Shown piece after piece: positions 1 to 21,527 of a stretch of 64,000 nt of DNA. A program made the position numbers and the translations under genes. The stretch is from Christensenella sp. (lineage in GTDB: Bacteria; Bacillota; Clostridia; Christensenellales; UBA3700), in NCBI GenBank assembly GCA_022784465.1, contig JALFUR010000010.1, positions 256,856 to 320,855 of the forward strand, in the 5' to 3' direction. The notes beneath the pieces are model-generated. The model saw nothing but the letters and a program-made list of their open reading frames with translations. It was not told where the DNA came from and did no database searches. Position 1 is the stretch's first letter; each line of letters begins with the position of its first letter.

Positions 1-3000
1 ATTTGTGCATATTCTTGCTTTGTTGCAAAATATCCATCATCTTTATTTCCTTTTATTATCTCTTGTCCTTTTTCACTAATTGTCGCACCTAAAACATCCG
101 CGTTAAAGTTAGCTCCTTTTAATTCATTATTTATTGCTGCAATCAATTGAGTATATTGATCTGTTGTTAACGAATAAGGAATATTTGTAAGTTCGCTAAC
201 CTCTGCAACTTCTACAGTAATTGCGCTTAATTGCTTTCTATATGATTGATTCAAATTAGAATATGTTGCGGTAATTGTTCTTTGAGTAATTTTTCCGCCA
301 TTTGTTGAAACATTATTAGATATAGATGTTTGCTGTGTTTCAGAACCAGAAACTAACAATGTTGTTCCAGTAAATGCATATTCAGAATAAGCCCACTTAT
401 AGTTTGCGTTTATTGTCTTAGCTGCATTTCTATCTAGAGAAACATTGAACATTGTATAAGCATAATATATTCCGCTTTCGCTATATGTTACCTTACCATT
501 ATTTGTTGTATATTTAAATGCTAAATCGTATACATATGCTGTTGTTAAATTAGAAACACTTGTTACACCAGATAATTCATTATAATTCATAATAACATTT
601 TGAGATTTTTCTAATTGATCTAAATACTCATATGTTACCAATTGATTATATTCTCTAGCTAAAGCGCTTATGCTTAATGAAGTAATATTTGTTTTACTTG
701 TTAAAGTAGAATACTTAACTGTATAAATCTTTTTGCCTGTTTCGCTATCTACTCCAGATAAGTAACATATAATAAACTTGTATTCTCCATTAACTAATTG
801 TGCCGCAACTGGACGAGTATATGAATTATATGATACGCTGTATCCTTCTCCAACGGCTGCACTACTATATGCTCCTATTGCATATATATCGTTTACACCA
901 TCTCCTGTTGTGTCAATTGCGGTCTCTGCAATTGTAGTACTATCATATTGCTTTTCTAATGTTGGAGCATTATTAATAGTCTTAGGAGTAATGATAAGCA
1001 TGATTGTAGCGCTACCTGTTCCAGAACTTGAAGATAGAATCTTTGCAGTTCTTGTTGAAGCATCAAATTCTCTACTTGTTGAGCTTACTTCTTTATTTGA
1101 TTCTTCAAAATATTCTGTATATACACCAACTTCTGTTCCTGAAATTGTTAGAACTTTTTCTTCATCGCCAATTGTTGCAGTGAATGATGCAGATATAGTT
1201 GATCCTGTATATTCGTATTCTTGAATAGTATCAACATTACCTGAAATTACCGCTTCAGCAATAATACCAATTGCAGGATTAAATATTGTTACCCAAATTG
1301 TCTTATCACCTTGCTTTGTTGATGTAATAAATGTTATTGTTGAATTCAATTCACATTCAGCTGTATCTGCACTATCTTGAAGTGTTACATCAAGATTAAA
1401 CAAGGCCACTGTTCTATTTAAACTTGTTCCATATGTTAAGTAGTTTGCATCATATGCTTCCCAAATAAATCTATTTAGTGGAGCTATTGTTTCTATAGCA
1501 ACACGATAACTTTCTGCACTGCTATCATATCCATAATAATATGTCTTATTAGCGTCGGTTTCAGTTTCATATACATTATGAAGATATCCATTTGTAGTAT
1601 ACTTGCCTTTTGCTGAGAAGTAGTAATCTATATATCCATTTGTATATGTTTCGCTAAACATAGATAGTTTTGTATTACTATCTCCATATAGTTTTGTAAT
1701 TGTTGCAGTAGCATTTGTATGTGTAGTTAAAATTGCATCAATAGCATAAGCAATTGTACATTGAATATTTGCGCCAATAGCGTTTACGTTTTCTCCAAAT
1801 GTTTTTACGACATATTTGTTTTCTCTAACTGCAATATAATTTATTGTACTTGAAGCAGTTGCACTTGCTGCAATTCCGCTAAATGCAGTAGCTATAGAAG
1901 TAGAATATGTAATAGCTACATTTTCTATTATGTTAGTATTTTCAATTGCAAAACCTGCAAACGATGCAATTGAAGAACCTTCCTCAACTGCAATATCTTT
2001 TGCCATATCTAAAGAACAATTCAATATTTTACCGCTATTTGTTCCTGCAATAACAGCAACTGGAGTCTTAATATCCTTACTAATAATACTTGTGGATACA
2101 AACTTAAAGTTTACATCTTGAATTGTTCCAGCATTTACTGCAACAAAGAATGCACTGTTTGTTTCACCTTGATTTAGTCCGCCATTTAATGTAATAGTGT
2201 AGCCATTTCCATACAATTTTCCGCTAAATGTTGTTCCTATTGTAGAAGCGTTATCAAAACCATAAATATTGTTTGTTAAATATCCTGTTCCGCTTGTTGC
2301 CAAGAAACTCTTAAGCTCATCTGGTGTTGAAATAGCAGTATATGCTTCATTTGATGTATAAACACCGCTAAATTGTCCTTCAGCAAGTTCACTGCTAGAT
2401 ACAGAAATGTTTGAACAATATTTTTCTTCAAGTGTACTTGCACCACTCTTTGAATTATCATACATTACAGCTGCAATTCTATCCGTATATGTTTCTAAAT
2501 CAATATTTTGCGAAGCATCTATAGATATTTCTAATGTATATACACTTTCTTCTTCTGAAATTTGTTGTGCGTATAATACTATATCTTTAATTTGCGAAGC
2601 TGTCATGACTGACCACAATGGTGAATCATTTACATTCAAAACAAAGTATTTAGCAACAGCTGCTTTAATTGCTGCAGCATTTTCTTCACTTAATGCCTTG
2701 GATTCGATAAATGAATTTAGCATTTGTGCTGTGCAAGTTTCATCGACAAACAATTGTAAAGATTTTAAATTCAACAAAGCAAGTTTTATTGCAAAATAGT
2801 TCACATTTGCATTTGTGCTACTATATTGTCTTTCAAGAGCAACTTTTGCTTCGCCAATCTTTATCGTAATTGTACTTGATGAAACAGTATAGTTTCCTAT
2901 TACAGAAGTTTTGTTTTGTGCAGAAGTAACATCAATATCATCTATTGTATAAGTAGCATTTCCGGTATATTCACCAGGAAGCAACTTAATATCGCTTGAA

Positions 3001-6000
3001 GAATAAGACAATACTAGAACTTCGCCTGCTACTCCATTTACTCTTAATCCTTTTGTAGATCCGTCAAACTCTTTTTCAAATGTGCCAGATACTGTCAATG
3101 CTCTTTGCGTAATTGTATATGAAGTTTTTGTTGTTGAACCTGAACTTGCATAAATATTACTTATTTTTCCACTAAACGTATAGTTAGAAGTACTTGCACT
3201 TATTGAAACACTTAAAGTAGGTGTATATGTGCCAGCATTGATGTATCCAGAAGAATTAGCCATCGTTATTCCAGAATTATTAATTCCGCCACTTGATGTA
3301 ATGCTATATGAAGTAAATGAAACTGTATCAGTGCCACTAAGAGCATTAACTACTGCTTTAACATTCGTTAGAGAACCCATACTAATAGAAGATAGGCTAC
3401 TTGTTCCGTCATATACTTTGCTTATATTAGAAAGAACAGCAGATACTTTTGATGAATCTGAAATTGTTTGTTTTCTTATAGTAAAGCTAAATGTACTATT
3501 AGTAAATTCAAAGTTTTGTTGAGAAGACGTCATAGAAATAGTAAACGTATGTGTTCCAGCGTTTGTAACTGTTTTATCCAAACTGAATGTCATTGTTGTT
3601 CCATCAATAGTAACTGATCCATTTGATAATTTTGCCGTTTGTCCATTCCATAACAATGTAGCAATAAAGTTGCTTGTGCCATATGTCTGACCAGCTAAGT
3701 AATCCGTACCATTTGCCACATAGACATCAACTCCTTGTTTTGTGAATCCTAATTTAGATAGAGCACCATCGGAAGTTGTACTACCTGTTACGATATCGAT
3801 TCTACGAGTTGTTACATCTCCTACTCCTGGAATTGTAGTATCAGCTAATCTATAATTATGTTCAGAATTCATGGCATTTGTTAACCAAACGTATTCTATG
3901 CCATCATAAATAAATGGCGTATAGTCAATATATGAACCAGAATTTTCCAAAATTACATCATATAAGTTTGTTCCGTTTGTTGCATCCTTTCCGGACATCT
4001 TTCCAGTAATATAATATGTGGTTACCTCTGCTCCATCGATATTAAATGTTGCCGTAACATTCTTATCTGACGAATCAAATCTATATTTTCCATCATATAC
4101 TTTTGTTACGTTTGTTAATGTAATCAATTTTGGAATAATAACACCTTTTCCTGTGATTGTGCATGTTTCGCCAACAGAAACACCTGCATCACTTAAATTC
4201 AACATGTAATTTGATGCAGTTCCGCCTTGTAATAATCTATATACTGTTGCATCAACAACAGAAGAGCCGTTATTGTATTTATATGTATAAGAAGAGGCCT
4301 TTAACTTGATGTTATTATATGCTCCGCTTGAATAAACTACATCTTTTGATGCATATTCTCCATCAAATGACTTGATTGAAGAATCTGTAGAAATCAAGCC
4401 TGTAATTGATTCAAATGTTCCTAGAGCTGTTGTGCCATCATATTCTTTTACTACATATCCAATTGAAACAGGAGCAGGCACAATATATGCAATATTAGAA
4501 ACTGAATATGATGTAGAGTTTGCATTCTTTATACAATAATTCGTTGCTACACCAGAATCCTTTATTCTATATAGAGAAACAGGAGAACCAGCTGCATCTA
4601 TATAATCAAATTTTTCCAATGATACATTTAGTGAACATTGACCAACTTGATTTGATGAATATTCTCCAGATAACTTATAATTTAATACTTCGCCTTTTTC
4701 AGACGTAACTAAAGTTGAGGAAGCTTGAGTTGTTCCGCTAGATGTATAAGATAAAGTTGTTCCTCCATCATATGTCTTATATGCATTTAATACATTTGCT
4801 CCAGCAGGAGTAATTGTTCCAACATTTGGAGTTTTTGATGATAAATAATAGTTTCCAAATAATGTATTATATTGAGTTCCTTGTATTGTTATTGCTGTAG
4901 TTGTAATATTTACAACGATACCTGTACCAACATTAGCGTTTGCATAAGTTGCCTCAATTCCTGTATTGGTGTCTGCGCCTAATAGTCCTGAAACAACAAA
5001 TGTAGCGTTTGTCGTAGCTGTTGTTTTGTCATATTCTTTTATTACTCTATCTACCTTTATTTCGGCAGGTGTCACATATACTTTTATTGTCTTTGTGCAA
5101 CTAGCTGTTGCCATGTTGCTACCAACATATTTTATTTCTACTTCAACAGAATATCCTTCTTCTTTTACATCCTTAATAGTTATTTCCTTAATCGTGATTG
5201 TCAATTCACCACTAGTTATTAATTTAGATGTGTCTAATACTTGACCATATGAATCGGTAACTTTAATATAATCAGAAAGTTCTGCGCCTAAAGCAATATT
5301 ATATCCTGTATATTTGCGCAACAAATCGGCAAATGTAGCTTCTATAGTTGGAGCGTTTGCTTGATTAATTCTTACCACTCTACCAGCATCCTTGCTACTC
5401 ATGGCAAAACCATTTGTCAAATCTCCGTTATAATAATAGTACTCTTTTGGATTGTCTATAGTTGCTTCCCCAACTTTTTGAGACAATTCATATAGAGTAA
5501 AGTATGCATTTGTTGTTCCAGACTTGTCTTTAACATAATAAGCAGTAACTATCTTCTCAACCCAACCTATATCTCTCTTTTCATATATAGAGTAAGTAAT
5601 ATTTCCTCCCATATTAATTGTTGCTGTTCTATCGCCAACCTCTGGAGAATCATATTTACCATCAATCGTTAGTTTTATGCTTGAATTTGTAGATAAAGAT
5701 ATTCCTCCTTGAGAATTATTGGAAATAGTTGGATTTGCTTCGCTTGCAACATAGGTAAATGTATGATCAATCGTGGCTTCAACTTTAGAACTATTAACAG
5801 AATTCGTTCCATACTCATAATGAATAGCATCACTTCCATCGTAGAATTTCTGAATGCTCGTTACATAAATTGAAATTGGAGCTATAACAATAAAGATTAC
5901 ATATGATTCAACAAGGCCTATGCTATTAGCACCTTTTCCATCAGAAGAGAAGAATTCTGTTCTATAGTCTTTAGAAACATATGCATTTGGATTAATGATG

Positions 6001-9000
6001 TTGCCCTCATTGTCCTTTGCGTATATATCATATTGAACCTTATATGAACCAATCTTCTTTAATTCTTCGCTAGCAGCAGATTCAACATATTCTCCTTTTG
6101 CATTCTTTACATAATAAGTTGTTTTAATGTTTCCATTTGCCTTAGCTGTAGCGAAAATATTGCTTGCTATAGAAGAAGATAATCTTGTTATAGACTGACC
6201 ATTTTGATTATATATTTCAACAGCAACGTTAGATGCGTCTGTTTTTCCATCATACATAACAGCCTTAAGTGGATGATATGTTGTGATATCTTTATCGTAC
6301 TCGTTAGAATAATAGTTTTTATCTGGACTTAATATCGCTGCGTTTCCGGTACAATAATACAATCTCATTCCATCACCTTCTCCTCTTTGGATTTGGTAAT
6401 TGAATTTCTTGTATTCTTTTGCGTTTTCAATTGATGAAGCAAATCTATATACTGGGATTTCTGTCACAGTATTTTTTGATGTCATCAATTTGTTTCCTTC
6501 ACTTGTTGCACCATAAATATTGATTGACCACATTATTGCAGATGTGTCTTCTGATTGAACTTCAAATTCGCACTTAATATCTGAACCAATTGTTTTATCT
6601 GCCCACTTTAAAGCATCTCCAAGAGTTGTTAATTCTGTATATGCACCGCCATCTGAGAAATTAGAAATTCCTTTATAAACATCCGCTGTCGATGATGTTG
6701 TATATTGTTCATAGTCAAATTTAAGGCCTGTTCCTATAACGTTTTCATTTGTCATTTCAAAAACTCTTAATGTCTTTGTTGGAATTTTTGAAGAAGAAGC
6801 TGTGGCAGATTCCAAAATATCACTAAAGCAGATAGCATATTTATTTGTTGAATCAATAATATTGCCACCACCGTAGTTTAAATTTAGAAGATATGTTCTT
6901 GTCGTATAGTAAGCACCACTATTAAATTGCGCTTCCGTTGGATTTTCAACTTTTACATATGAACTTCCATTGTATGTGTAATATGTCATTGAAGAGACAA
7001 ATTTAGCTAATTTTTCTTTTGCTGGATAATATGCACCAGTAGTATTGTTTGTCCCTCCGTTGTTATGAATATAAATTCCTGAGCCCTTGCTTATACCATT
7101 TGTAAAGTCTGTAGTATAATCTTTTCCAAAAGTAGAAATATCAAAAGTATAGTAGAAGTTTGTTGAAGCTCCATCGTCTGTAACACCGATACAAGATCCA
7201 CCATAATATGTTACTGTCATCTTGCTTCTGTTACCACCGACTGTTGAGCCGCCCCATCCAGCGTTATACCATGTTGTATTTAAACAAGCTCCCTTCCAGT
7301 TGAAGATAACGCCATCAATTGTACCGCTTCCAAGACCCTTTGGATTCCATGTTGAACTAGAACTATTACATCCAATAACACCACCTGTAGCAGCGTGGAA
7401 ATCGTTAAATGTACCACTGTCATCTGTACAACCAACAGCACCTAGCAATGAAGAAGCAGATCCTTCAATTTTTAGATTGTACATATATGAATTATGTAGC
7501 ATCATTCCTGCAAATCCACCAACATAGTTAAATATTGATCCTCTTGAACCACCACCATTGGTACTTCCTCTAGAGTTCATTATCAAGATGGAATTGTCTC
7601 CCATTGTAAGTGTACAGTTAGAAATAGTTGATCCCTTTCCAAGTAAACCAGTAAATGCTCCTAATAGGTTAGTTGTATATTTTGAATTGTTTGATGGCCA
7701 TGTTGTCCAGTTTGTTGGAATATCACGTTTATATACATATACTTGCGTGTTATCTTCCATTGTAAGCGTACAATTATCTATTTTACCTGAGCTATAGGCG
7801 CATACAACACCTACAAATATACTTCTTTCCAAATCTGGCGCAGAGTAGTCCGAATTTGCTATAGTTAAAACTGAACCTTCCTTGAACTTGAAGTTTACAT
7901 TTTTTATAATACCTCTATTTACGCCTACAAAACCGCCTGCAAGATATGATTCAACATCAACAGATGGTGTGTGAGCAACATCAGACAACATAACCATTTG
8001 TTGGGCAAAAGTATTTGCAACTATAGTTACACTATATCCTTTTCCATCAAGCGTTTTTTCGCTGTTAAATTCAAAATATTGTGTTGAATTCCAGCCAATA
8101 TTAACATCAATACTTGTTGAATTATATGTATATTTGTTTAAAATCAAATCTACTCCTAATTCTGCTTTTAGTGCAGCATAATAAGAAACAATTGAACCGT
8201 CTGCACACTTATATTTCTCGACAAGCAACAAGTGTGTTGAATCATATGTATATATATCTGAATCTGTATATCCACATTGATTTAAAGCACTTATTGTTGT
8301 AGCATCATTAGAAGCCCATGAAACTCCATATTCTTTAGATCCTTTTATGAACTGCTTTTCTGAAGTAAACACTTTTGCGATTTGAGCCTTATAAGCTTCA
8401 ACAAATCCTGTTTTTACATCTGAAGAAGAGTTTGATGGATTATATTTCATATACTGCATTAATTGGAAAATGTCAGTAATTAAAACTGTAGGGAAATAAT
8501 ACTCAATTTCTATTTGAGTTAAATATCCATTATTGTTAAATACTTCATTTAAGAATGCAGGCTTTAATGTTAATGTTACATATCCTGTATCGCTTGCTTT
8601 AGCAAAAGAAAGATAACTTGTATTGTCTTGTGTGTAAGTCTTAATTATTGTAGATAAAGGCATTTCCTCAATATATGCATAATCTAATCTTGAAATATTT
8701 GCATCATTAGTTTGAATAATTAAATTACCATTTTCATTGCTACCAAATCCTAATGAATAATCTGCATTTACTTCAACTCTTCCACCATATACAAAGCTTG
8801 TGTTGCCTGTTACTACACTATCAACATGACCCATAAAAGGAAGACCTGCACCAATAACATAGCCTTGATATAAACCGTCTTGTCTATATCCACCTTCATT
8901 AAGAAGTTCAGAATATGAAGAATAATCACTAGTTATAAATATGTTTTTATATGCTGGAGACGATGTTGTTTCAGCAGACTTACTAGATGCTTTTGCAAAA

Positions 9001-12000
9001 GCAAGACCTAGCATATATTTTCCTGCAAGTGTATAGAACATATTACCATTAAATTGAATAATCATGTCATGAACTTTATTGGTTGTACCATCAACACAAT
9101 CATGTATAGCATGACCTGCAATCTCAGGTGTAGTTCCTTCTATATTATTAGAAATAGCTATGCCCATTGCAAAGAACATAAACTTGGTATCTTCATAAAG
9201 AATTCTTACCTGCTCTTGAACTATTATAGTATTTCCGTTTTCATCCTTTCCCTCAACATCCTGAGTTCCATATAATTCATATCCCGGATTTGAAACATTG
9301 ATTGTTCCGCTTCCTGAAATCTTTGTATATTGAACAGCACCACCGTCATTTACTCCGACAATACCACCAAATACTACTGCGCCAGTTAAATTATCCTTTA
9401 GTAAATTGCTTGAAGAATCATATGTGATAACATTTCTGTTGAATGAACCATTTATTGTTACTTCTGCATTCTTTAAAGATGATCCAACTCCATTAAGAGC
9501 AACTGCACCACCAATTGTAACATTCTTTGCAAAGCCAGTAATGGTGTAGGTATTTTCCATTTTAATATTAAATCCATCAATTGAACCTCTATTAATTCCT
9601 ACACCAGGAGAAACTAATAAATCACAAGTTGCTTCTTGGCTTTCATATGTAAATACTGTAGGACTATTAAGTTCAACTGAACAGTTGTTAATTATGCCTA
9701 AATTAACTCCACAGAAAGAACCATATGCAACATTTGCTCCATTTCCAATTAAGCCTTTGTAATAATGTTGATTAGCAGAATCTCTTGTCTTTACTTTTAA
9801 GTTATTAATTGTTCCTCTATTTATTGAAATAAAGTCAGATATACCATAAATTCTAACTGAGGTTTCTCCGTTTGTACCTTCATACCACTTAGGATATTCT
9901 CCAACATTTGAAATTAAATTGTTTCCTGCTGCTGAACCACCAGAATCTTCAGTAAGACCGGCTATTTGGTTATCCGTATCTCCTATCCAGTAAGAAATAA
10001 AGTAGTGGCCGCCTCCGTTTAAAGTCTTTCTTGAGGTCATTTCAATTGTTGATGTAACCTTTTTATCATAAACAACATCGCCTTGTAAGTTACCCGTTGT
10101 TGCCCCTGCATATAAAGGCAAATTGCCTCTTCCAGCAACAAAGTTTATAATTGGGCTATCTTTCAATGCGTTTAGGTTATTATAAGAAATATTTTCGCCC
10201 GCAATATTTACAGAATATTGGATGTTAAATACATAATAATAACCAACAGCTGAACTTGCTCTTGATAAACCTGTCAATGTTAATCCTGTATCTCCAACTG
10301 TAGGAGTACATGAAATATTTTGAGAAGCTAGTTGTTCTGGTGCTACATGTGATGTAGTAGATGCCCAATTCAATGTGATTTTAAATCCGGTCATTATATA
10401 ATTAGAACATGTAACTTCTAATCCCGAAGTTAATGCTTCATATCCTTGTCCGTACTCGCTTCCATCTTGTAGAACTATTCTATTTGTAGCCTTGGCCATG
10501 TCGTGTTTTTCTCTATTTAATGTAGCAGATTGATCTTTAGAATAATCCTCTACTACTCCATATAAAGAGTTTTCATATCTTCCGGATACTTGGAAGGCAT
10601 CAACATCTCCAAGACATACTGCTGTAATATGAGCTTTAAATATTCTAGCTACAAGATCGGCATTTGCTTGATTCATAGAAGTAATACACTTACCAAATAC
10701 TAAACCTGAACCTCCACGTACAGAATTCCAGCATTCAACACCGCCTGTTAATGCTACATTTATACCGCTTATAGAATCCTTTTCTGCACCTAATTCTTCT
10801 ACCTTTAATAATGTAAATGAGGCAAGGCCTAAATTGTCAACAAGAGGCATATATCCTACAGCGCCGCCAACATTTGAATATGTAAACAATGTCTTATTTG
10901 TGTGAACAGAGCCCAATCCTTTTACTGTTAATCCTTTTACTATACCACCATTTGTTACGCCTATTGCTCCACCTACTACTCCATAAGAAAGCGCCGTAGT
11001 TTCATAACTTGTACTTGCCACATATATCTTTCCCACGTTACCATGGTTTATAGACGTAACATAAGAAACTTCGTTATTGATTACTGACCCTCTATCATTT
11101 AGCCCGCATAATCCACCAACAAGTCCAAGTGTTGTTCCTGAAGACGAAACTACTTTTGCTCCATAATTACATCCTATACTAACTTTATTATTTCTTAAAA
11201 TTCCTTGATTTATTCCGCATAAAACACCAAATGCTACGTTTGTTCCTGCTTGAATTGTTATGCTTTGATGTCGATTTGAGTTGCCTGCATTATATGTTGG
11301 GTCAACAACGATAGTCATATATTCAATAATGCCTTCGTTTCTTCCAACAACATTTCCAACAGCATTAACATCTATGGTATTTGTTCCGTTTGATACTTGT
11401 GCTAAAGTTCCATAATTTACTGTAGCATCATCTTTCCCCCAAGTATACGTTATTGTATATGATGTGTCTCCATCTTCAAATACTCTTTCTGTAGAGTTGT
11501 AACTAGAAAAATTAAACGAGCGACCTCTTAGTGTCTTTTTATAATTTAAAACTATATTTGTTGCAAGATCATTATTTTTTTGATTACTATCTACAACAAG
11601 ATTTGCACTTAATATTCCGTATCCAGCACAATAAATATAGTTATTATATTCACCTTTAGCGCTTGCTGTTTCAGAGTCTCCCATAAAACTCTTATATTCG
11701 GCTTCATTATTTATTAGTACATATAATCTAACTAATACATCACAAGTTGTAGCAGGATTTTTTGTACTATATATAATTGCGTTTGCATCTTGTGCAGAGA
11801 ATGTAAATTTGCCATTTGAAGATAAACTTGTTTCGTAATCTTTATTATTTATTTTTACAGGTTTTTGAGTTCCGTCTTCAAGTTCAATTGTTGCATCCAT
11901 TCCTTGGTAGCCCGTATATCCTAATGTGTTAGGACCTTTATATCCTACGGTAATTGTATCCCCACTTAACGAAATAGAGTTCAACATTGCAGAACCAACA

Positions 12001-15000
12001 GCTCCATCTCCACAATCCGCAATACCTATTCCTGCAATACCAGAAATGTATACATTGTCTGAGCCATTACCAAGTCCTGTATTTGTACCCATAATACCAG
12101 CGATACCATCAAAGATCTGCTTCTGATAATATGAACCATCTTCTTTTTGAGGAGTATTACTTGTGTACCAAATCAAGTTTCCATATCTATGAACATAAGT
12201 ATATGAATTTGTATCTGAAGCAGGTTGACTTCCGTCTGAGCCATATAAAATTGTGTTATATCTTCCTGCTATATATCCCCAACTTCCCCAGTTGGCACCA
12301 ATTGAAGCAAAGTTGAACGAAGTGCAATCTAATAATTTACCAACTCCAATTGTATCTCCGTTGTGTTTCATTGGATTAGTAGCATCTACTGTTCCTTCTT
12401 CACATCCAACACCAATTAAACCTCCAACATATAATCCGTTATCTGAACCTTTGCTAGATTTAGCATTTAATAATGCCCCTGCCACATTTGTAAATCCACA
12501 ATTACTTATATATCCAGAACTGGTTACTCCTGCTATTCCTCCAACGGCATATGAGTTCATTGCGATGTCATCTGCGCCTGCAATTAATGTGCCCTCATTT
12601 CTAAATGAACAATTTTGTATTACTCCAGAGATATCATCTCCATTGCCCTTATTGTATCCAGCAATTCCGCCTAAATAAGAATTTTTTGAACCAGTTGAAG
12701 CAAATACGCCTTGATTTGTTATAGAGGTATCATGTATTTTTCCTAGATTATATCCAGTAACGCCTCCCATATACTGGGTAGTTGCCCCTGTTTGGAAAGC
12801 ATACTTTTCTATTGTGGTATTAGAGTTCTTTGCTAAAATAACCATGCTCTTAATGGTGTCTTTTTTCGTAATTGAATAATAATTTTTATCCGCAGGAATA
12901 TCCAAGCCAGACTCTCCTTTGTATGGAGAGGTATATGAAGTATTTTGAATTATACCATTTGTATCATTAATTCCTGTATATAATCCAAAATATGCACTTA
13001 ATGCACTTCCTGTCACCAAAGTTGAAGGATATTGCGATTCTTTCTTATATGAAGAAGTTTGTATCCATGAGTTTGTAACAGTATCTGGTGTATTTACATA
13101 AATATATTGCATTGTACCATCATTGGACCCGGCGATTAATCCATAGGATAATTTATAACTTGGATCTCCGTATATTTTTTGCTCTCTTCCTTGATATACT
13201 TCTACTGGCTTAATGGTACCATCTTTCGTTCCAATAATTCCTTTATTTATTCCTACAACATTTCCTATTGAAGTATTCGCATATGGATATCCATTTACAT
13301 ATTGTTTTATATCTTGATATTGTCCTAATTCCGTAGTTGATCTAGGTTGAACATCCATATAAGTGTATAAGAAAATATTTTGCAATGTTCCATAGTTTAC
13401 AGCAAGCAACATTCCAACGCCATAATATTTCTCTCCGTTTACGCTCGCATATCCTCTAAATTCATCATTTGTAAACTTTAAATAATCCGATGTATACCCT
13501 ACAGTTGTTTCTGAATATCCTACATTTTCAATGCCAGCATTGCTTGAATGTTTGTCTGAAGTGTTACCTAGATAGTAATTATAAATACCATGTCCGTTAC
13601 CATCAATTGTCTTATACGAAGGAAGAATTCTACTTCCGTTATATGTTGTATTAAAGGTAATATTTGCAGCCAACTTATATGTTGTTGTTTGAGAATATGT
13701 AGTTCTGTCATAATATCTCGAATAAATAAAGTCGAAAATTGCTACGTTCGATTTAGAACCAGGATCAATAACATTAATGCTCATCGAGTTGAATCTGTCT
13801 TTTGAAGTATTATAATCATTACCTCCCGTTGTAGAGGATACAGGAATAATTAGAATTCTAACAAAAGCAATACCTTCTCTTGGAACCGCGTCTTCACCAT
13901 AGTCATAACCCGTGATACCTTGTACTCCGTCTTGATCTGTAGATGTGTTTCTAGATGCGCCAGTCGTAATATAATTTATTGAGCTTGCATCGCTAGAACT
14001 ACCTAATGAGTAATTGTTTATGTATAAAGAATCTACACCGCTTTTCCATGCATATTTTATTACATATGAAGTTGCACTTGTTACAGAATCGCTTGATGAA
14101 ACATATTGAATGTCTTGAATATATAAATAATTGCTAAATGTAGATGCAACTCTTGCTCCGCTTGTATTGAAAAATGATACTTTTGTAAAATATTTAGAAT
14201 AATCTGATGCAAACGAATCTATTCTAGCATCTTTATTTACGTAGATAAAATCATAATATCTTGGATTTGCAGCTGTAGGATTAGCAACTTTAGTCGCATC
14301 TAATATTGAATCATATAAAGTTTTTGTATCATCAAGCGTAATTAACAATTTAGCTTGTGTTACCATATATGCAACATTATTTAAAGAAGATGCTGTCAAA
14401 TCATTTGTTTCTGCAATACTAAACGAAATAGTATAAGATCCAGAGTTTAAAATTGTTGATACACTAGAAGAATTTAGTTGATTATCTAAAAATGTATTTG
14501 TCATTGCAACATTAACATAATGAATTGCAGAATCGCTTGTTATTATTTTTACTCTTGAACCTTCCATAGCAACAGATCTTATACCTGTTACCAATAGAGG
14601 GTCAATAAATGGATTGATTCTTGTATATGGATTAATTTCAACTCCGTTATATACTTTTTGATTATCTCCTGTCCAGCTTAATTCAATTGTTGTTTGATTG
14701 ATGGTATAAGTATATGTATATATCGCTTTTTTTACATTATTGTTTACAGGATACGTGTATGTAATAATATATGTTCCAGCATCTTGTATTGGTTCTCCTG
14801 CATCTTTTATTGAAGATAAATCAGAGTTTACTGCTGTATATGTCATTGTACAAATTGGCGTATCTAGAGATATTTTTTCAGAAGATTGGGCTTTACCATA
14901 ATAAGAAGACCATGAGAATGTATTAAACAAACTCCATAAAACCGCTTCATCGTCAATTATCTGAGCATATTGATTGTCTGGAACGTTTTGCGCCATAAAA

Positions 15001-17444
15001 TTGTAAAACTTTCCTTCATCATCATTAGACCCTATTCCAGAAGTAGTTATATAATCAAATCCAGCAATTGATGTAAATCCTACCTCCGCTTGAGCCTTTA
15101 CTATAGAAAAAGGAATGGTATATGTAGTATTAATAGCGAAATTGCTAACACCTGTTGTTTCACCCTTTGATATGGTTATAGAATATGACCCAACATTTCT
15201 AATATCCGTAGCAGACATAATAATGTTTAATTCTTCATTATCTATAAGATTAGAATATTCAAGTTTTGTTTCAGGAGATGTTTGACATGCTTTTAACAAC
15301 TCATTAAAATATTTTTTTCCAACTGTTGTAATCCCTGTTTTGTCTGATGTACTTGATGAAGTATATAGCGAATTTGTTGTGTAAATGAAAGAATAATTAG
15401 CTGCTAAACTAACATCCATCGTTACATCTGCAGGTGTTATAGTGATTGTTTTAGAACCAGTAATGGTCTTGTAGTTTGTGAAATTTATTTTATAATAAAC
15501 CACTTTACCACTATCTTTAACATCCGTAATTGTAATTGGACTCGTTTGATATGTTGCTGAGTCTTTAGAATATTGAATAGAAGCATATCCTGATTCTAAT
15601 AAATCTTCAAAATTTTCTGACTCTTTCAATCCTGTAGCCGAAACAGTTATTCCGTGTGGCATTCCATCAAACACATATCTTGTGTCTCTTGAACTATCTA
15701 TTGGCGCGTCCGCTTGTTCCACCACAATGTTAATACTATACGCAACGTTATATACCACATAATAAGAACTCAACAAAACTCCTCCTGTTTTTGATGAATT
15801 ATATATATGAGTACCGACATCTTTAGCATTTAATTCTGTACAATCGTATCCACCTACTTTTGCTGTTTGACCTATACTTGAACCTTCTCTGTATATTTCA
15901 TTGGTTGTAGTGATTCCTGTGTCTTTTTTCCCAATATAAGAACATTTTCCTGTATTAGTAGAGGTCTGTTCCATTGATGAATTAATCGAACTTGTAATTG
16001 CTGTTGTTTGATTAATAACGCCAGCATACATTCCGTTATAAGTATAAGAAACATTCGAGGAAACAGAGCCTTTTGAGATTATAGGAATTGTTCTATCGCC
16101 AACCCCTCCCGCTGCGACTTCTCGTGTATCATATACCGTTGAATTAATAGTCACTGTATCAACGAATTTACCGGTTGTAGCTTGACCTGTTTTTTGTGGA
16201 TCATAACTAGACAATTGTCCAATCCACATTTTCGAATTATCTGAACGGCAAAAACCTATCTCTCCTTCGCTTAAACTGAATGTTGCCGAAACGGAAACTG
16301 TGCTTGATTGCGTTTTTATATCAGCACTTGAAGCGTTTTTAAAAACATTGCTTGTAGATATTGATTTAGCTGTACCTATAAAAGAATTTGCGTTCTTGGT
16401 TCCTTTCATGTTCGTTATAGAAACAGTTCCTGTAAAACTATATATTAATCCGTTAATAGTAACAGCTCCATTATCTTGAGAATAACCAATACAAGCGCCT
16501 AGATGCGCTCTCTCATTTCCTCCTCTCCCTGTACCTTTTGCGCTCACATTTCCAGAACCATTTATCTTTAAATTAGTTATCGATAATGCTGTATCATTTC
16601 TTCCTGCTAATCCCCCACAATAAAAATTAAAGTCTGGGTATATCAACCCAGAACCAGGAGCACCGTTTTGCATTGATAAAGTATTACCCTGGAAATCTAT
16701 TGTCATTTTTGTAATTGTAGTCGATTTTGAACTACTGTTTGAAATCCAACCCGCAAACATAGAAAAGCCACTTTCATGACCACTTGTTGGCCTTTTGCCT
16801 TCTGGCGTTGAATATACAGCATTACACATAAGAGTTACTGAACAATTCTCTAAAGTTGACCCCTTAAATAATCCTGCTACAGCTCCAATATAAGTATCTT
16901 TACCAGTACCGTCTTTTATTTCATGATTTAATTGATATATTACAAATTTTGTATTTTTTATTGTTGCCTCATGTACAACACCAAACATTCCTCCCCAAAA
17001 GCCATCCATATGAGATCCTGATAAATACAATTTAACAGTATGTCCACAACCATCAAAAGTTCCTGAAAAACGCGAGCCGTTGTTCTCAGAACCGCTTTCG
17101 TAATCAACAGGACTTCCTGAAGAACCAATATCAATATCTTCTGTTAAATAATAAGAATTTGAATCTTTAAATCCCCTTTTAGTAGATGAAGAATTCGAAA
17201 TTGGAGTTCCCGTTCCCGTATATCCTGATGGAACAGAACCATCTTCAAGACCATCTCCATTAGAAGCATAACCAATACTACCCTTACTACTAGGACCCCA
17301 AGCAACATTAGATACGTTTGCATCATCTACTGAAACAACATTGTTTGAATTATTTGAAACGTCAAAAGAAAAAACCATAGCACAAGCTATAGCAACAACT
17401 GCTATTATGCATACTATAGAAACAAGTTTTTTCTTTTGAATCAT
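1..17444 (-). CDS. Giant secreted/surface adhesin-like protein (>=5,814 aa in window; C-terminal end runs off the left edge). Contains GLUG-type beta-helix cassettes plus YDG/MBG-like repeats.
   Basis: ATG at 17444 sits 7 nt after AAGGAG. Hand translation gives MIQKKKLVSIVCIIAVVAIACAMVFSFDVSNNS..., and the same frame is still open at nt 3 (...KGNKDDGYFATKQEYAQ). The track lists no ATG-to-stop ORF in this frame, which fits a stop outside the window. Recurrent motifs: FDGxGH/YxI, VGGxxG...G.I.NC, and ITP/ITQ...K.YDGT. Confidence 0.85.
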   Translation of the reverse strand, partial: MIQKKKLVSIVCIIAVVAIACAMVFSFDVSNNSNNVVSVDDANVSNVAWGPSSKGSIGYASNGDGLEDGSVPSGYTGTGTPISNSSSTKRGFKDSNSYYLTEDIDIGSSGSPVDYESGSENNGSRFSGTFDGCGHTVKLYLSGSHMDGFWGGMFGVVHEATIKNTKFVIYQLNHEIKDGTGKDTYIGAVAGLFKGSTLENCSVTLMCNAVYSTPEGKRPTSGHESGFSMFAGWISNSSSKSTTITKMTIDFQGNTLSMQNGAPGSGLIYPDFNFYCGGLAGRNDTALSITNLKINGSGNVSAKGTGRGGNERAHLGACIGYSQDNGAVTINGLIYSFTGTVSITNMKGTKNANSFIGTAKSISTSNVFKNASSADIKTQSSTVSVSATFSLSEGEIGFCRSDNSKMWIGQLSSYDPQKTGQATTGKFVDTVTINSTVYDTREVAAGGVGDRTIPIISKGSVSSNVSYTYNGMYAGVINQTTAITSSINSSMEQTSTNTGKCSYIGKKDTGITTTNEIYREGSSIGQTAKVGGYDCTELNAKDVGTHIYNSSKTGGVLLSSYYVVYNVAYSINIVVEQADAPIDSSRDTRYVFDGMPHGITVSATGLKESENFEDLLESGYASIQYSKDSATYQTSPITITDVKDSGKVVYYKINFTNYKTITGSKTITITPADVTMDVSLAANYSFIYTTNSLYTSSSTSDKTGITTVGKKYFNELLKACQTSPETKLEYSNLIDNEELNIIMSATDIRNVGSYSITISKGETTGVSNFAINTTYTIPFSIVKAQAEVGFTSIAGFDYITTSGIGSNDDEGKFYNFMAQNVPDNQYAQIIDDEAVLWSLFNTFSWSSYYGKAQSSEKISLDTPICTMTYTAVNSDLSSIKDAGEPIQDAGTYIITYTYPVNNNVKKAIYTYTYTINQTTIELSWTGDNQKVYNGVEINPYTRINPFIDPLLVTGIRSVAMEGSRVKIITSDSAIHYVNVAMTNTFLDNQLNSSSVSTILNSGSYTISFSIAETNDLTASSLNNVAYMVTQAKLLITLDDTKTLYDSILDATKVANPTAANPRYYDFIYVNKDARIDSFASDYSKYFTKVSFFNTSGARVASTFSNYLYIQDIQYVSSSDSVTSATSYVIKYAWKSGVDSLYINNYSLGSSSDASSINYITTGASRNTSTDQDGVQGITGYDYGEDAVPREGIAFVRILIIPVSSTTGGNDYNTSKDRFNSMSINVIDPGSKSNVAIFDFIYSRYYDRTTYSQTTTYKLAANITFNTTYNGSRILPSYKTIDGNGHGIYNYYLGNTSDKHSSNAGIENVGYSETTVGYTSDYLKFTNDEFRGYASVNGEKYYGVGMLLAVNYGTLQNIFLYTYMDVQPRSTTELGQYQDIKQYVNGYPYANTSIGNVVGINKGIIGTKDGTIKPVEVYQGREQKIYGDPSYKLSYGLIAGSNDGTMQYIYVNTPDTVTNSWIQTSSYKKESQYPSTLVTGSALSAYFGLYTGINDTNGIIQNTSYTSPYKGESGLDIPADKNYYSITKKDTIKSMVILAKNSNTTIEKYAFQTGATTQYMGGVTGYNLGKIHDTSITNQGVFASTGSKNSYLGGIAGYNKGNGDDISGVIQNCSFRNEGTLIAGADDIAMNSYAVGGIAGVTSSGYISNCGFTNVAGALLNAKSSKGSDNGLYVGGLIGVGCEEGTVDATNPMKHNGDTIGVGKLLDCTSFNFASIGANWGSWGYIAGRYNTILYGSDGSQPASDTNSYTYVHRYGNLIWYTSNTPQKEDGSYYQKQIFDGIAGIMGTNTGLGNGSDNVYISGIAGIGIADCGDGAVGSAMLNSISLSGDTITVGYKGPNTLGYTGYQGMDATIELEDGTQKPVKINNKDYETSLSSNGKFTFSAQDANAIIYSTKNPATTCDVLVRLYVLINNEAEYKSFMGDSETASAKGEYNNYIYCAGYGILSANLVVDSNQKNNDLATNIVLNYKKTLRGRSFNFSSYNSTERVFEDGDTSYTITYTWGKDDATVNYGTLAQVSNGTNTIDVNAVGNVVGRNEGIIEYMTIVVDPTYNAGNSNRHQSITIQAGTNVAFGVLCGINQGILRNNKVSIGCNYGAKVVSSSGTTLGLVGGLCGLNDRGSVINNEVSYVTSINHGNVGKIYVASTSYETTALSYGVVGGAIGVTNGGIVKGLTVKGLGSVHTNKTLFTYSNVGGAVGYMPLVDNLGLASFTLLKVEELGAEKDSISGINVALTGGVECWNSVRGGSGLVFGKCITSMNQANADLVARIFKAHITAVCLGDVDAFQVSGRYENSLYGVVEDYSKDQSATLNREKHDMAKATNRIVLQDGSEYGQGYEALTSGLEVTCSNYIMTGFKITLNWASTTSHVAPEQLASQNISCTPTVGDTGLTLTGLSRASSAVGYYYVFNIQYSVNIAGENISYNNLNALKDSPIINFVAGRGNLPLYAGATTGNLQGDVVYDKKVTSTIEMTSRKTLNGGGHYFISYWIGDTDNQIAGLTEDSGGSAAGNNLISNVGEYPKWYEGTNGETSVRIYGISDFISINRGTINNLKVKTRDSANQHYYKGLIGNGANVAYGSFCGVNLGIINNCSVELNSPTVFTYESQEATCDLLVSPGVGINRGSIDGFNIKMENTYTITGFAKNVTIGGAVALNGVGSSLKNAEVTINGSFNRNVITYDSSSNLLKDNLTGAVVFGGIVGVNDGGAVQYTKISGSGTINVSNPGYELYGTQDVEGKDENGNTIIVQEQVRILYEDTKFMFFAMGIAISNNIEGTTPEIAGHAIHDCVDGTTNKVHDMIIQFNGNMFYTLAGKYMLGLAFAKASSKSAETTSSPAYKNIFITSDYSSYSELLNEGGYRQDGLYQGYVIGAGLPFMGHVDSVVTGNTSFVYGGRVEVNADYSLGFGSNENGNLIIQTNDANISRLDYAYIEEMPLSTIIKTYTQDNTSYLSFAKASDTGYVTLTLKPAFLNEVFNNNGYLTQIEIEYYFPTVLITDIFQLMQYMKYNPSNSSSDVKTGFVEAYKAQIAKVFTSEKQFIKGSKEYGVSWASNDATTISALNQCGYTDSDIYTYDSTHLLLVEKYKCADGSIVSYYAALKAELGVDLILNKYTYNSTSIDVNIGWNSTQYFEFNSEKTLDGKGYSVTIVANTFAQQMVMLSDVAHTPSVDVESYLAGGFVGVNRGIIKNVNFKFKEGSVLTIANSDYSAPDLERSIFVGVVCAYSSGKIDNCTLTMEDNTQVYVYKRDIPTNWTTWPSNNSKYTTNLLGAFTGLLGKGSTISNCTLTMGDNSILIMNSRGSTNGGGSRGSIFNYVGGFAGMMLHNSYMYNLKIEGSASSLLGAVGCTDDSGTFNDFHAATGGVIGCNSSSSTWNPKGLGSGTIDGVIFNWKGACLNTTWYNAGWGGSTVGGNRSKMTVTYYGGSCIGVTDDGASTNFYYTFDISTFGKDYTTDFTNGISKGSGIYIHNNGGTNNTTGAYYPAKEKLAKFVSSMTYYTYNGSSYVKVENPTEAQFNSGAYYTTRTYLLNLNYGGGNIIDSTNKYAICFSDILESATASSSKIPTKTLRVFEMTNENVIGTGLKFDYEQYTTSSTADVYKGISNFSDGGAYTELTTLGDALKWADKTIGSDIKCEFEVQSEDTSAIMWSINIYGATSEGNKLMTSKNTVTEIPVYRFASSIENAKEYKKFNYQIQRGEGDGMRLYYCTGNAAILSPDKNYYSNEYDKDITTYHPLKAVMYDGKTDASNVAVEIYNQNGQSITRLSSSIASNIFATAKANGNIKTTYYVKNAKGEYVESAASEELKKIGSYKVQYDIYAKDNEGNIINPNAYVSKDYRTEFFSSDGKGANSIGLVESYVIFIVIAPISIYVTSIQKFYDGSDAIHYEYGTNSVNSSKVEATIDHTFTYVASEANPTISNNSQGGISLSTNSSIKLTIDGKYDSPEVGDRTATINMGGNITYSIYEKRDIGWVEKIVTAYYVKDKSGTTNAYFTLYELSQKVGEATIDNPKEYYYYNGDLTNGFAMSSKDAGRVVRINQANAPTIEATFADLLRKYTGYNIALGAELSDYIKVTDSYGQVLDTSKLITSGELTITIKEITIKDVKEEGYSVEVEIKYVGSNMATASCTKTIKVYVTPAEIKVDRVIKEYDKTTATTNATFVVSGLLGADTNTGIEATYANANVGTGIVVNITTTAITIQGTQYNTLFGNYYLSSKTPNVGTITPAGANVLNAYKTYDGGTTLSYTSSGTTQASSTLVTSEKGEVLNYKLSGEYSSNQVGQCSLNVSLEKFDYIDAAGSPVSLYRIKDSGVATNYCIKNANSTSYSVSNIAYIVPAPVSIGYVVKEYDGTTALGTFESITGLISTDSSIKSFDGEYASKDVVYSSGAYNNIKLKASSYTYKYNNGSSVVDATVYRLLQGGTASNYMLNLSDAGVSVGETCTITGKGVIIPKLITLTNVTKVYDGKYRFDSSDKNVTATFNIDGAEVTTYYITGKMSGKDATNGTNLYDVILENSGSYIDYTPFIYDGIEYVWLTNAMNSEHNYRLADTTIPGVGDVTTRRIDIVTGSTTSDGALSKLGFTKQGVDVYVANGTDYLAGQTYGTSNFIATLLWNGQTAKLSNGSVTIDGTTMTFSLDKTVTNAGTHTFTISMTSSQQNFEFTNSTFSFTIRKQTISDSSKVSAVLSNISKVYDGTSSLSSISMGSLTNVKAVVNALSGTDTVSFTSYSITSSGGINNSGITMANSSGYINAGTYTPTLSVSISASTSNYTFSGKISNIYASSGSTTKTSYTITQRALTVSGTFEKEFDGSTKGLRVNGVAGEVLVLSYSSSDIKLLPGEYTGNATYTIDDIDVTSAQNKTSVIGNYTVSSSTITIKIGEAKVALERQYSSTNANVNYFAIKLALLNLKSLQLFVDETCTAQMLNSFIESKALSEENAAAIKAAVAKYFVLNVNDSPLWSVMTASQIKDIVLYAQQISEEESVYTLEISIDASQNIDLETYTDRIAAVMYDNSKSGASTLEEKYCSNISVSSSELAEGQFSGVYTSNEAYTAISTPDELKSFLATSGTGYLTNNIYGFDNASTIGTTFSGKLYGNGYTITLNGGLNQGETNSAFFVAVNAGTIQDVNFKFVSTSIISKDIKTPVAVIAGTNSGKILNCSLDMAKDIAVEEGSSIASFAGFAIENTNIIENVAITYSTSIATAFSGIAASATASSTINYIAVRENKYVVKTFGENVNAIGANIQCTIAYAIDAILTTHTNATATITKLYGDSNTKLSMFSETYTNGYIDYYFSAKGKYTTNGYLHNVYETETDANKTYYYGYDSSAESYRVAIETIAPLNRFIWEAYDANYLTYGTSLNRTVALFNLDVTLQDSADTAECELNSTITFITSTKQGDKTIWVTIFNPAIGIIAEAVISGNVDTIQEYEYTGSTISASFTATIGDEEKVLTISGTEVGVYTEYFEESNKEVSSTSREFDASTRTAKILSSSSGTGSATIMLIITPKTINNAPTLEKQYDSTTIAETAIDTTGDGVNDIYAIGAYSSAAVGEGYSVSYNSYTRPVAAQLVNGEYKFIICYLSGVDSETGKKIYTVKYSTLTSKTNITSLSISALAREYNQLVTYEYLDQLEKSQNVIMNYNELSGVTSVSNLTTAYVYDLAFKYTTNNGKVTYSESGIYYAYTMFNVSLDRNAAKTINANYKWAYSEYAFTGTTLLVSGSETQQTSISNNVSTNGGKITQRTITATYSNLNQSYRKQLSAITVEVAEVSELTNIPYSLTTDQYTQLIAAINNELKGANFNADVLGATISEKGQEIIKGNKDDGYFATKQEYAQ

Positions 17445-19801: not shown

Positions 19802-19810
19802 TAAGAATAA

Positions 19811-20626: not shown

Positions 20627-20639
20627 TTTTTACTTCTCC

Positions 20640-21521: not shown

Positions 21522-21527
21522 TTTTCC

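Follow-up and report, generated by a model that had tools for sequence, protein, structure and literature searches.

A predicted exported protein of 6,122 residues encoded beside a CoCoPALM-like gene cluster in Christensenella sp.

The left end of the window, a 64,000-nt stretch of contig JALFUR010000010.1 of Christensenella sp., a low-GC and uncultured member of the Clostridia, is occupied by a single giant gene transcribed leftwards (3–17444). The gene is real and conserved, and the window holds the first 95% of its functional 6,122-residue coding sequence. With a probability of about 0.6, the product is exported and serves as a surface fibre or adhesin, and it may partner the putative pilus system encoded in the adjacent cluster (17704–27734). 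The attachment of gut bacteria to their hosts, to particles of food and to one another depends largely on giant surface proteins, which are routinely missed in annotation, as this one was.

The reading frame, its completeness and its relatives

Translation of the reverse complement of nt 1–17444 yields 5,814 codons from the ATG at 17444 to nt 3, beginning MIQKKK and reading ...IIKGNKDDGYFATKQEYAQ at nt 3, with no in-frame stop between these positions, just as the initial annotation had reported for an uninterrupted minus-strand frame of about 17.4 kb. An in-frame stop lies four codons 5' of the ATG, and 17444 is therefore the earliest start possible. The Shine-Dalgarno sequence AAGGAG that had been placed 7 nt upstream is read directly at 17450–17455 (minus strand), but it ends 5 nt before the ATG, a trivial correction. 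Given the base composition of this strand, about 8% of its codons would be stops if they were random, and arithmetic from that composition puts the probability of 5,814 open codons by chance at about 1e-219.

The gene fills 27.3% of the window (earlier given as 27%). The ORF track omits it, since the lister reports no edge-open ORFs and the stop is beyond the window edge. This explanation had been offered from the window itself and holds in a second locus (L001), where DNA identical to the window across 20.8 kb carries a complete gene call of 6,122 aa; the window therefore lacks about 308 codons and the stop, which lie to its left. The short ORFs, which had correctly been dismissed as shadows of the giant, span 778–17326, with end coordinates that agree with the earlier description; three are on the minus strand, but 15 rather than 13 on the plus strand, because one count admits only ATG starts and the other ATG, GTG or TTG. 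Assembly collapse of repeats, on which the initial annotation had asked for a check, is excluded because the gene has no direct DNA repeat longer than 33 nt and independent assemblies agree.

Five colinear relatives of 6,138–6,450 aa are present in other metagenomes, with 33–88% identity and intact ORFs, and a 6,175-aa gene has the same position in locus L176. The dN/dS values of the giant (0.07–0.54) indicate that it is under purifying selection. It founds a very small family, for the most part unannotated, among Christensenellales-like gut bacteria that are uncultured; at full length, the family has 10 matches in a set of 1.84 billion representative proteins. With the last 600 residues encoded in the window there was no match at E <= 1e-3 in 185,579 GTDB species genomes and none in the JGI metagenomes. 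An N-terminal alignment searched against the latter retrieved nothing but generic beta-helix matches at residues ~95–205, in many unrelated metagenomic proteins (27–45% identity), which were uninformative on the cluster. In a word-indexed homologue search neither the last 1,500 nor the first 1,200 residues encoded in the window found matches, which, as relatives exist, reflects a limit of the method.

Architecture and strain variation of the giant protein

All features given with coordinates here and below lie on the minus strand. Residues 1–32 (17349–17444) carry KKK followed by about 21 hydrophobic residues (MIQKKKLVSIVCIIAVVAIACAMVFSFD) and form the sole strong hydrophobic segment of the protein (Kyte-Doolittle mean 3.1), with no conserved second segment. 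Residues 1–31 are identical in every strain variant read, and the position of the segment is conserved in all relatives. The segment is predicted to act as a Sec signal peptide or, if it stays uncleaved, to anchor the N-terminus in the membrane; the profile for SipW-dependent signals (TIGR04088) has no match in residues 1–200 at E <= 1.

The protein is rich in S, T, G, N and Y and poor in Cys. Two Pfam families match above their gathering cut-offs: the GLUG-motif family PF07581 (24.1 bits; cut-off 20.5) and the YDG-domain family PF18657 (34.8 bits, best at residues 4129–4204; cut-off 25). The YDG family is also matched in three of 24 chunks of the relatives, and MBG_2 in one relative (E 2.6e-37). 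About 90% of the giant has no Pfam match, and PDB sequence and profile searches gave no relevant match.

Six beta-helix modules can be placed in the window, each opened by the motif F-x-G-x-[FLI]-[DN]-G-x-G-[HY]. Module 1 (residues ~95–400) lies within a strain-variable head (residues ~50–650, 15495–17297). Module 2 (residues ~1201–1800, 12045–13844) has GLUG-like GG[IV][AT]G turns and a Glug match of 18.2 bits at residues 1588–1615, below the cut-off. Module 3 (residues ~1960–2300, 10545–11567) has profile matches to modules 2, 4 and 5 with E down to 4.7e-11, and module 4 (residues ~2401–2850, 8895–10244) is placed by profile comparison. Module 5 (residues ~3121–3460, 7065–8084) carries the PF07581 match (residues 3166–3185, two stretches) and is the part of the giant best conserved across the family, and module 6 (residues ~5021–5260, 1665–2384) matches modules 1 and 5 with E from 5e-8 to 9e-5. 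The six are mutually related by in-family profiles, and apart from module 5 (and module 2, below threshold) they are related in this way only; self-BLASTP of the giant detects no internal repeats, so that profiles are needed to relate the modules. A single-sequence AF2 model of residues 36–700 predicts residues ~124–390 to be all-beta, at low confidence (pLDDT 36).

There are eight K-x-[YF]-D-[GSK] repeats. Seven are YDG-type Ig-like repeats between modules 5 and 6 (residues ~3856–4870, 2835–5879; PF18657 in three stretches), and a lone YDG-like repeat, placed by the repeat motif, follows module 6 (residues ~5487–5587, 684–986). The window ends within a conserved C-terminal domain (residues 5714–5814, 3–305; GGKITQRTITATYSNLNQSYR...), which in the relatives runs on into a seventh beta-helix-like module and a terminal motif NFRQYWAYxNICPWL...GYQFE, conserved in the full-length relatives P0001–P0004. 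The tail of the giant left of the window thus presumably contains a seventh module too.

The initial annotation had suggested looking for a C-terminal anchor. An LPXTG-like motif and a C-terminal hydrophobic segment are absent from P0001–P0004, which stand in for the off-window tail, and SLH, CWB2 and choline-binding Pfam repeats were found in neither the giant nor its relatives (including the C-terminal chunk L088:21283–22596), in which the matches are confined to YDG, MBG_2 and Glug. An S-layer protein was considered and rejected as a reading of the giant.

The head differs sharply between strains, with 12–40% identity where the flanking DNA is 95–97% identical, and at least three alleles are seen. 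Module 2 is the second block that differs between strains (50–66% identity to P0001). The dS values are 1.12 for the head and 1.07 for module 2, against 0.04–0.27 elsewhere in the giant, a pattern that points to modules 1 and 2 being swapped between strains by recombination.

The adjacent cluster

The cluster upstream of the giant opens with an EAL-domain protein of 376 aa (26604–27734) and an exported protein of 349 aa as an ORF, or about 308 aa from an internal start (25523–26572), with a weakly TapA-like N-terminus (E 0.009) whose sequence, MKKSTLITTIAMIVVVVVALSTATYAWF, is invariant in the three distant loci where it was read. There follows a McrB-like AAA+ GTPase of 514 aa (23861–25405; PDC-M26A E 7.6e-36, NF008457 E 1.2e-7, AAA_5 similarity), with a predicted N-terminal TM helix (residues ~52–78), a heptad-like stretch (~85–120) and no FtsB/DivIC Pfam match. 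Its partner is a McrC-like DUF2357 protein of 534 aa (22234–23838; DUF2357 39.2 bits, cut-off 23.3), which has a long, acidic, K/E-rich, coiled-coil-like tail and no detectable nuclease domain. McrB/McrC-like pairs are otherwise known from restriction systems only.

Two peptidases come next in the cluster. The first is a SipW/archaeal-type signal peptidase I of 238 aa (21528–22244) with motifs TDSM, THRI and TRGD, which belongs to the SipW-type class (TIGR02228 61.3 bits, cut-off 51.85; NF046067 E 5e-18). The second, of 271 aa (19811–20626), is a diverged SipW-type enzyme (NF046067 E 1.7e-13; TIGR02228 39.5 bits, below the cut-off) with motifs SASM, THRI and TKGDA, a C-terminal TM and a K/E-rich tail. 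A membrane-anchored or exported protein of 293 aa (20640–21521; ...LTGGTYGVLTF...) is encoded between them.

The remaining cluster genes encode small exported proteins. The product of 276 aa (18971–19801) has an N-terminal ...STYAWFSD motif and a borderline TIGR04088 match (17.9 bits; cut-off 19), and its family has 29 members, 28 of them without a name and one labelled only 'hypothetical protein'. Its AF2 model (pLDDT 79.8, pTM 0.73) retrieved no TasA or pilin fold from the PDB with Foldseek (best E 0.037, TM <0.25), and a profile search of PDB sequences, TasA and CalY included, gave nothing relevant, as was also the case for sequence and profile searches with the small cluster proteins. The 217-aa protein (18318–18971) has a weak BspA-type LRR_5 match that recurs in its orthologues, and the last cluster gene encodes a 205-aa protein (17704–18321) with an N-terminus ...LSGTTFAFYS. 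Five small exported proteins of the cluster share similar N-termini, [ST]x[YF]A[FW][FY]S.

Gene order is conserved across distant loci wherever the contigs extend. The exported parts are 27–36% identical across these loci, as against 87–90% for the cytoplasmic pair; the McrC-like protein is 87–89% identical over 317 residues in distant loci, and the GTPase about 89–90% identical across loci whose other cluster proteins share 27–57%. An unrelated defence island was rejected as an interpretation of the pair, in view of its constant order beside the SipW genes in all loci examined with contigs long enough and of the McrC-like protein having no detectable nuclease domain.

In its gene content the cluster fits the 'CoCoPALM' description of Bell et al. 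(PMC11090510), for which a role in pilus assembly was predicted. The traits given in the accessible portion of that paper are a McrB-like GTPase with an N-terminal FtsB-like TM and coiled-coil and an NxD rather than NxxD signature, a coiled-coil McrC homologue (DUF2357), and adjacent signal-peptidase-family genes. The cluster is similar in its predicted TM and coiled-coil-like McrB GTPase, its DUF2357 protein with a coiled-coil-like tail and its neighbouring signal-peptidase-family genes, with two SipW-like genes directly downstream of the McrC homologue; the GTPase motif GTANNDDS parses either as N-N-D and a second D (NxD) or as N-N-D-D (NxxD). Neither a giant protein nor small exported subunits nor an EAL gene are brought up in that portion of the paper, and its supplements hold no CoCoPALM details.

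The giant directly follows the 205-aa gene in five lineages, in which the cluster proteins are only 27–55% identical, and L094 encodes, on the opposite side of the same cluster, a protein that shares the C-terminal domain (32% identity, E 9e-53) and is at least 2,940 aa long. Clusters without an adjacent giant also occur (L091, L092/L093 and L175), and the giant is therefore accessory to the cluster. Between the two lie 259 nt that contain a terminator-like hairpin, so that the giant may be transcribed on its own, separately from the cluster. On its 3' side, birA begins 2–3 nt past the stop codon or overlaps it in L087–L089, and a P-type ATPase gene is also downstream.

Possible roles and comparison with known systems

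As a surface fibre or adhesin, the giant would be an all-beta protein of megadalton size, directed to Sec export by its one N-terminal hydrophobic segment. Seven diverged GLUG-type beta-helix modules, as exposed faces for ligands or antigens, would be joined by beta-sandwich stalks of YDG/MBG-type Ig-like repeats and unassigned beta-rich regions, with the conserved C-terminal domain at the end. Without a sortase motif, SLH repeats or a C-terminal TM, it would stay on the cell either because its N-terminal helix is left uncleaved or because it docks, perhaps through the C-terminal domain, onto a structure that the cluster builds. We infer its surface location, adhesive role, mode of anchoring and functional coupling to the cluster from these features. 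As counterpoints, an uncleaved N-terminal anchor would put the variable head beside the membrane, an odd place for a binding tip, and the N-terminus of the giant lacks a SipW-cognate signal score.

The closest comparison is with the GLUG/YDG/MBG surface proteins of Bacillota and Fusobacteriota (PF07581, PF18657, PF18676), with which the giant shares all three elements, an N-terminal export signal and an S/T/G/N/Y-rich composition. It differs in being mostly too diverged for Pfam and in having none of the anchors usual among them (LPXTG, SLH or choline-binding). Ebh/Embp of Staphylococcus and the Mobiluncus mulieris adhesin have a C-terminal TM or sortase-type anchor, and in having no known anchor the giant is unlike these too. 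As far as the available excerpts on them extend (PMC9302970, PMC10619420), Ebh/Embp and the 7,651-residue Mobiluncus adhesin, which has 51 cross-linked Ig-like repeat domains, are like the giant megadalton-sized, Sec-exported, modular, presumed to project from the cell and the largest protein of their genome region, but they are built of many near-identical tandem repeats, whereas the modules of the giant are related at the profile level only. The SiiE, LapA and Bap-type RTX/T1SS adhesins (PMC6272769, PMC7493085) are similarly non-fimbrial with Ig-like stalk repeats; in the passages available on them they are Gram-negative, calcium-stiffened and carry a C-terminal signal for type I secretion, whereas the giant belongs to a Bacillota host (Spo0A is encoded in the window) and its signal is N-terminal and of Sec type. 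No RTX or BIg Pfam matches were found in the giant or its relatives, and with birA and the P-type ATPase gene as its downstream genes it does not belong to the RTX/T1SS class.

We know of no TasA-type operon with a 6,100-residue partner. The cluster itself is comparable to the fibre operons TapA-SipW-TasA of Bacillus subtilis, SipW-BsaA of Clostridium perfringens and CalY/TasA of B. cereus, which, in the parts of their descriptions at hand (PMC9674648, PMC10151520, PMC7395162), likewise place dedicated archaeal-type peptidases beside small exported proteins with signal peptides ending in aromatic-rich segments (cf. TIGR04088). It differs from them in having two peptidases with long K/E-rich tails, the McrB/McrC-like pair and an EAL protein, and in that its 276-aa subunit, as modelled, has no TasA-like fold and no sequence match to solved structures.

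A bolder proposal, which we consider doubtful, assigns the giant to an uncharacterised class of Gram-positive surface organelle as its adhesive cargo or tip. In such an organelle SipW-type peptidases would process novel-fold subunits and the McrB-like GTPase and its McrC-like partner would drive or gate assembly. Put forward as a rival to the fibre reading, it would have the adjacent CoCoPALM cluster build a new kind of organelle with the giant as dedicated cargo or tip adhesin; in this form it is tentative but stands ahead of the other alternatives. Here the peptidases would process the giant along with the small subunits, the membrane-anchored GTPase/DUF2357 pair would act in assembly, and the C-terminal domain, or a new N-terminus exposed by cleavage, would join the giant to the fibre. 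The adjacency in five lineages, the L094 relative on the other side of the cluster, the two SipW-like peptidases, the five small proteins with alike N-termini (one of them invariant), the strong conservation of the cytoplasmic pair beside diverged exported parts and the pilus role predicted in the available portion of Bell et al. (PMC11090510) all favour it. However, the giant lacks a TIGR04088-type signal, the model of the 276-aa subunit matches neither TasA nor a pilin fold, some lineages have the cluster with no adjacent giant, the giant may have its own promoter behind an upstream terminator, and we found no characterised CoCoPALM system in the literature. If the proposal is true, the conserved C-terminal domain would be a new docking module for the organelle machine. 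The recurrent adjacency in any case provides a concrete candidate substrate for a system so far merely named, and the role of McrBC-like GTPases beside signal peptidases becomes approachable by experiment.

It is improbable that the giant is an extracellular enzyme or multi-enzyme whose beta-helices would, for example, work as polysaccharide lyases or hydrolases and attack glycans of the host or its diet, or the walls of other cells. The parallel beta-helix is a common fold of polysaccharide lyases and hydrolases and the giant would have seven such modules, but Pfam, NCBIfam and PDB sequence searches recovered no catalytic family and the recognised elements are only the adhesin-type GLUG, YDG and MBG. 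A preprint, in the part available, does tie giant genes to cell-wall degradation (10.1101/2023.11.21.568195).

Far less probable still is a role in contact-dependent competition or as a polymorphic toxin (Rhs-, LXG- or CDI-like), with the variable part as the toxin. The great length, export and strain variation by recombination would suit it, but we reject it since the variation falls in N-terminal beta-helix modules, the C-terminal end ranks with the best-conserved regions, the next gene is birA rather than an immunity gene, and no toxin, Rhs or LXG domain was found. Next to no probability attaches to the long frame being an artefact, whether of assembly, by chimerism or collapse, or in the form of a pseudogene still open while it decays: all of the sequences are metagenome assemblies and nothing further speaks for it, and it is refuted by the improbably long open frame, the identical sequence in independent assemblies, the intact orthologues in divergent lineages, dN/dS below 1 and the absence of long repeats.

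For the preferred reading as a surface fibre or adhesin, exchange of modules 1 and 2 would be expected of parts that are met by hosts, phages and neighbouring cells. Because they are exchanged between strains, these beta-helix modules are candidate sites of strain-specific binding or of escape from antibodies and phages.

The giant open frame and its relatives

The giant gene lies on the minus strand of the window at nt 3-17444, with its 3' end cut off by the left edge. Translation of the reverse complement of nt 1-17444 yields 5,814 stop-free codons, from MIQKKK... at the ATG at 17444 to ...KQEYAQ at nt 3, which bears out the uninterrupted frame described in the initial annotation; an in-frame stop precedes the ATG by four codons, and an AAGGAG ends 5 nt before this start. 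Stops are expected from base composition at about 8% of random codons on this strand, giving a chance probability for the open run of about 1e-219. The gene was indeed dropped from the ORF track, and its absence is explained by the inability of the ORF lister to report edge-open frames; only 18 short ORFs are listed between 778 and 17326.

The 276-aa neighbour protein is present on eight public contigs. The missing end of the giant is supplied by the contig L001 (Logan SRR14369243_5539), which is 100% identical to the window across 20.8 kb and in which the gene is called complete at 6,122 aa; the window is thus short of about 308 codons. Repeat collapse, for which a check had been suggested, is not a concern, since there are no direct DNA repeats longer than 33 nt and no internal protein repeats by BLASTP. 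Relative to the conspecific copy in locus L088, dN/dS is 0.07-0.54 in all 300-codon windows. An artefactual frame is refuted, and both the original observation and its interpretation stand.

With residues 3131-4330 as query, a HMMER search through 1.84 billion representative proteins gave only 10 matches (E <= 1e-3). Four are full-length and colinear with the giant, namely P0001 (6,138 aa, 88% identical, same species) and the more distant P0002, P0003 and P0004 (6,264, 6,450 and 6,370 aa; 33-38% identity), and a fifth, P0005 (2,822 aa), is partial; another giant gene (6,175 aa) is present in L176. A word-indexed protein search with either end of the giant returned nothing, although the library searched exhaustively with HMMER contained the 88%-identical full-length relative. 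Very long proteins seem to escape this index, and a finding of 'no homologues' there is untrustworthy for giants.

Protein anatomy and strain variation

Residues 1-32 include KKK followed by about 21 hydrophobic residues, the sole strong hydrophobic segment, whose position is kept in all relatives. Six stretches begin with F/T-x-G-x-[FLI]-[DN]-G-x-G-[HY], hold GG[ILV][AV]G turns, and are mutually related at the profile level; one of these beta-helix modules is above the Pfam GLUG cut-off (24.1 vs 20.5 bits), a second is narrowly below it, and the C-termini of relatives suggest a seventh in the tail beyond the window. There are seven YDG-type Ig-like repeats at residues 3856-4870 and an eighth at 5487-5587 (PF18657, 34.8 bits, cut-off 25), and one relative has a strong MBG_2 domain. 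A conserved C-terminal part begins near residue 5714, occupies about 430 residues in full-length relatives, and terminates in NFRQYWAYxNICPWL...GYQFE. The proposed search for a C-terminal anchor, made on full-length relatives by hydrophobicity and Pfam, revealed no LPXTG motif, C-terminal transmembrane (TM) helix, or SLH or choline-binding repeat. The remaining ~90% of the length has no match in Pfam, NCBIfam or PDB sequences; the composition is rich in S/T/G/N/Y and poor in Cys.

In contigs with flanking DNA 95-97% identical to the window, residues 1-31 of the giants are exactly alike, identity falls to 12-40% at residues ~50-650, and then returns to 80-99%; at least three alleles of this head region, which includes beta-helix module 1, are seen. 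Two blocks diverge between the window giant and P0001/L088, corresponding to beta-helix modules 1 (residues ~100-400) and 2 (residues ~1200-1600), with dS of ~1.1 vs 0.04-0.27 elsewhere. The combination of high dS and dN/dS below 1 points to recombination that brought in divergent alleles, not to local hypermutation.

The upstream gene cluster and its association with the giant

Upstream of the giant and on the same strand is a cluster of ten genes (17704-27734), likened to the 'CoCoPALM' putative pilus assembly clusters (PMC11090510), on which no follow-up work was found in the portions of the literature available. The conserved first gene (26604-27734) codes for a stand-alone EAL domain with a long K/E-rich C-terminal tail, which hints at c-di-GMP-linked control. 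It is followed by an exported protein (25523-26572; L091 3249-4256, L092 3339-4268, L094 3222-4214) whose N-terminus, MKKSTLITTIAMIVVVVVALSTATYAWF, does not vary among the three distant loci in which it was read, while identity over the whole protein is only ~34%, the pattern of a filament subunit with a structural N-terminal segment; its 349-aa start is probably too far upstream, as it is called at 307-309 aa in other assemblies. The segment 22234-25405 encodes two proteins: a 514-aa McrB-like AAA+ GTPase, which has a TM helix at its N-terminus and hits the PADLOC candidate family PDC-M26A (E 7.6e-36), and a DUF2357 (McrC N-domain) protein, whose tail is acidic and coiled-coil-like and in which no nuclease domain is recognisable. 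A SipW/archaeal-type signal peptidase I (21528-22244; TIGR02228, 61.3 vs 51.85 bits) and a second, diverged SipW-like peptidase (19811-20626) each have a C-terminal TM helix and then a long K/E-rich tail with the common motif KKKAIEEY; the coiled-coil-like regions in the McrB-like and DUF2357 proteins are possible contact sites for these tails.

Four small cluster proteins have hydrophobic N-termini ending in [ST]x[YF]A[FW][FY]-like or GG[TA][YW]G motifs. The 276-aa subunit belongs to a family of 29 members (28 unnamed and one just 'hypothetical protein'), and its AlphaFold model (pLDDT 79.8) has no counterpart among solved folds, including those of TasA and pilins. A 217-aa exported protein (18318-18971) has a weak, below-cut-off match to BspA-type LRR_5 (E 1.7e-4), also weak or faint in its orthologues in L087, L094 and L176.

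Gene order is kept in distant loci, but conservation of the proteins is strikingly uneven. Between the window and L090-L094, the McrB-like GTPase is 89-90% identical and the N-terminal part of the DUF2357 protein 87-89%, whereas identity is only 27-57% for the SipW, EAL and exported proteins (peptidases ~52%, EAL ~55%, exported proteins 27-36% across distant loci). Such conservation is unusual for a McrB/McrC-like pair, normally found in fast-evolving restriction systems.

In five lineages, namely the window species, L087, L089, L090 and L176, the giant comes immediately after the 205-aa gene; no giant is within reach of the cluster in L091 and L092/L093, so the giant is an accessory but recurrent partner. 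The next gene is birA in L087, L088 and L089, the loci where it was identified; in L094 and L175 birA comes after the cluster without an intervening giant, but L094 has, just upstream of the EAL gene, a gene for a protein of >=2,940 aa sharing the C-terminal domain of the giant (32% identity, E 9e-53). Between giant and cluster is a spacer of 259 nt that is AT-rich and contains a terminator-like hairpin; the giant may therefore be transcribed on its own. The conspecific DNA left of the window (L088 22601-32599) has birA starting 2 nt past the giant's stop, then genes for a P-type ATPase, a SleB-like Hydrolase_2, an FkbH-like protein, a carrier protein and an MBOAT protein.

Interpretation and host

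The reading with the best support makes the giant a megadalton surface fibre or adhesin exported by Sec; its beta-helix modules would be carried on Ig-like stalks, and the two modules that vary between strains would be the exposed, selected faces. It could be anchored by an uncleaved N-terminal helix or by docking onto a cluster-made structure; no SipW-cognate signal was recognised at its N-terminus. A more novel rival is that it is the dedicated cargo of a new McrBC-GTPase-linked organelle, and another is that it is a glycan- or wall-degrading enzyme; a polymorphic toxin is contradicted by the conserved C-terminus and the neighbouring birA. Finding a giant surface protein in a gut member of the Bacillota is no surprise by itself; the interest of the proposed fibre or adhesin lies in its tiny, largely unannotated family, in the lack of any known anchor, and in its repeated occurrence next to a cluster that is uncharacterised and whose McrB-like GTPase is unusually conserved.

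The host is an uncultured, gut-associated, Christensenellales-like bacterium. The window (GC ~32%) encodes Spo0A, glycolysis genes and several aminoacyl-tRNA synthetases. Among GTDB species genomes, identity to its LeuRS does not exceed 77%, and the best matches are in Christensenellales or Clostridia MAGs, many labelled animal or human gut. For three further large ORFs, at 28403-30757 (plus strand, 784 aa), 43028-44527 (minus, 499 aa) and 46260-48524 (minus, 754 aa), Pfam gives no match even at E <= 1. The Spo0A gene of this Christensenellales-like genome (36344-37135, minus; Spo0A_C, E 1e-34) adjoins an 85-nt tRNA on the plus strand (37212-37296).
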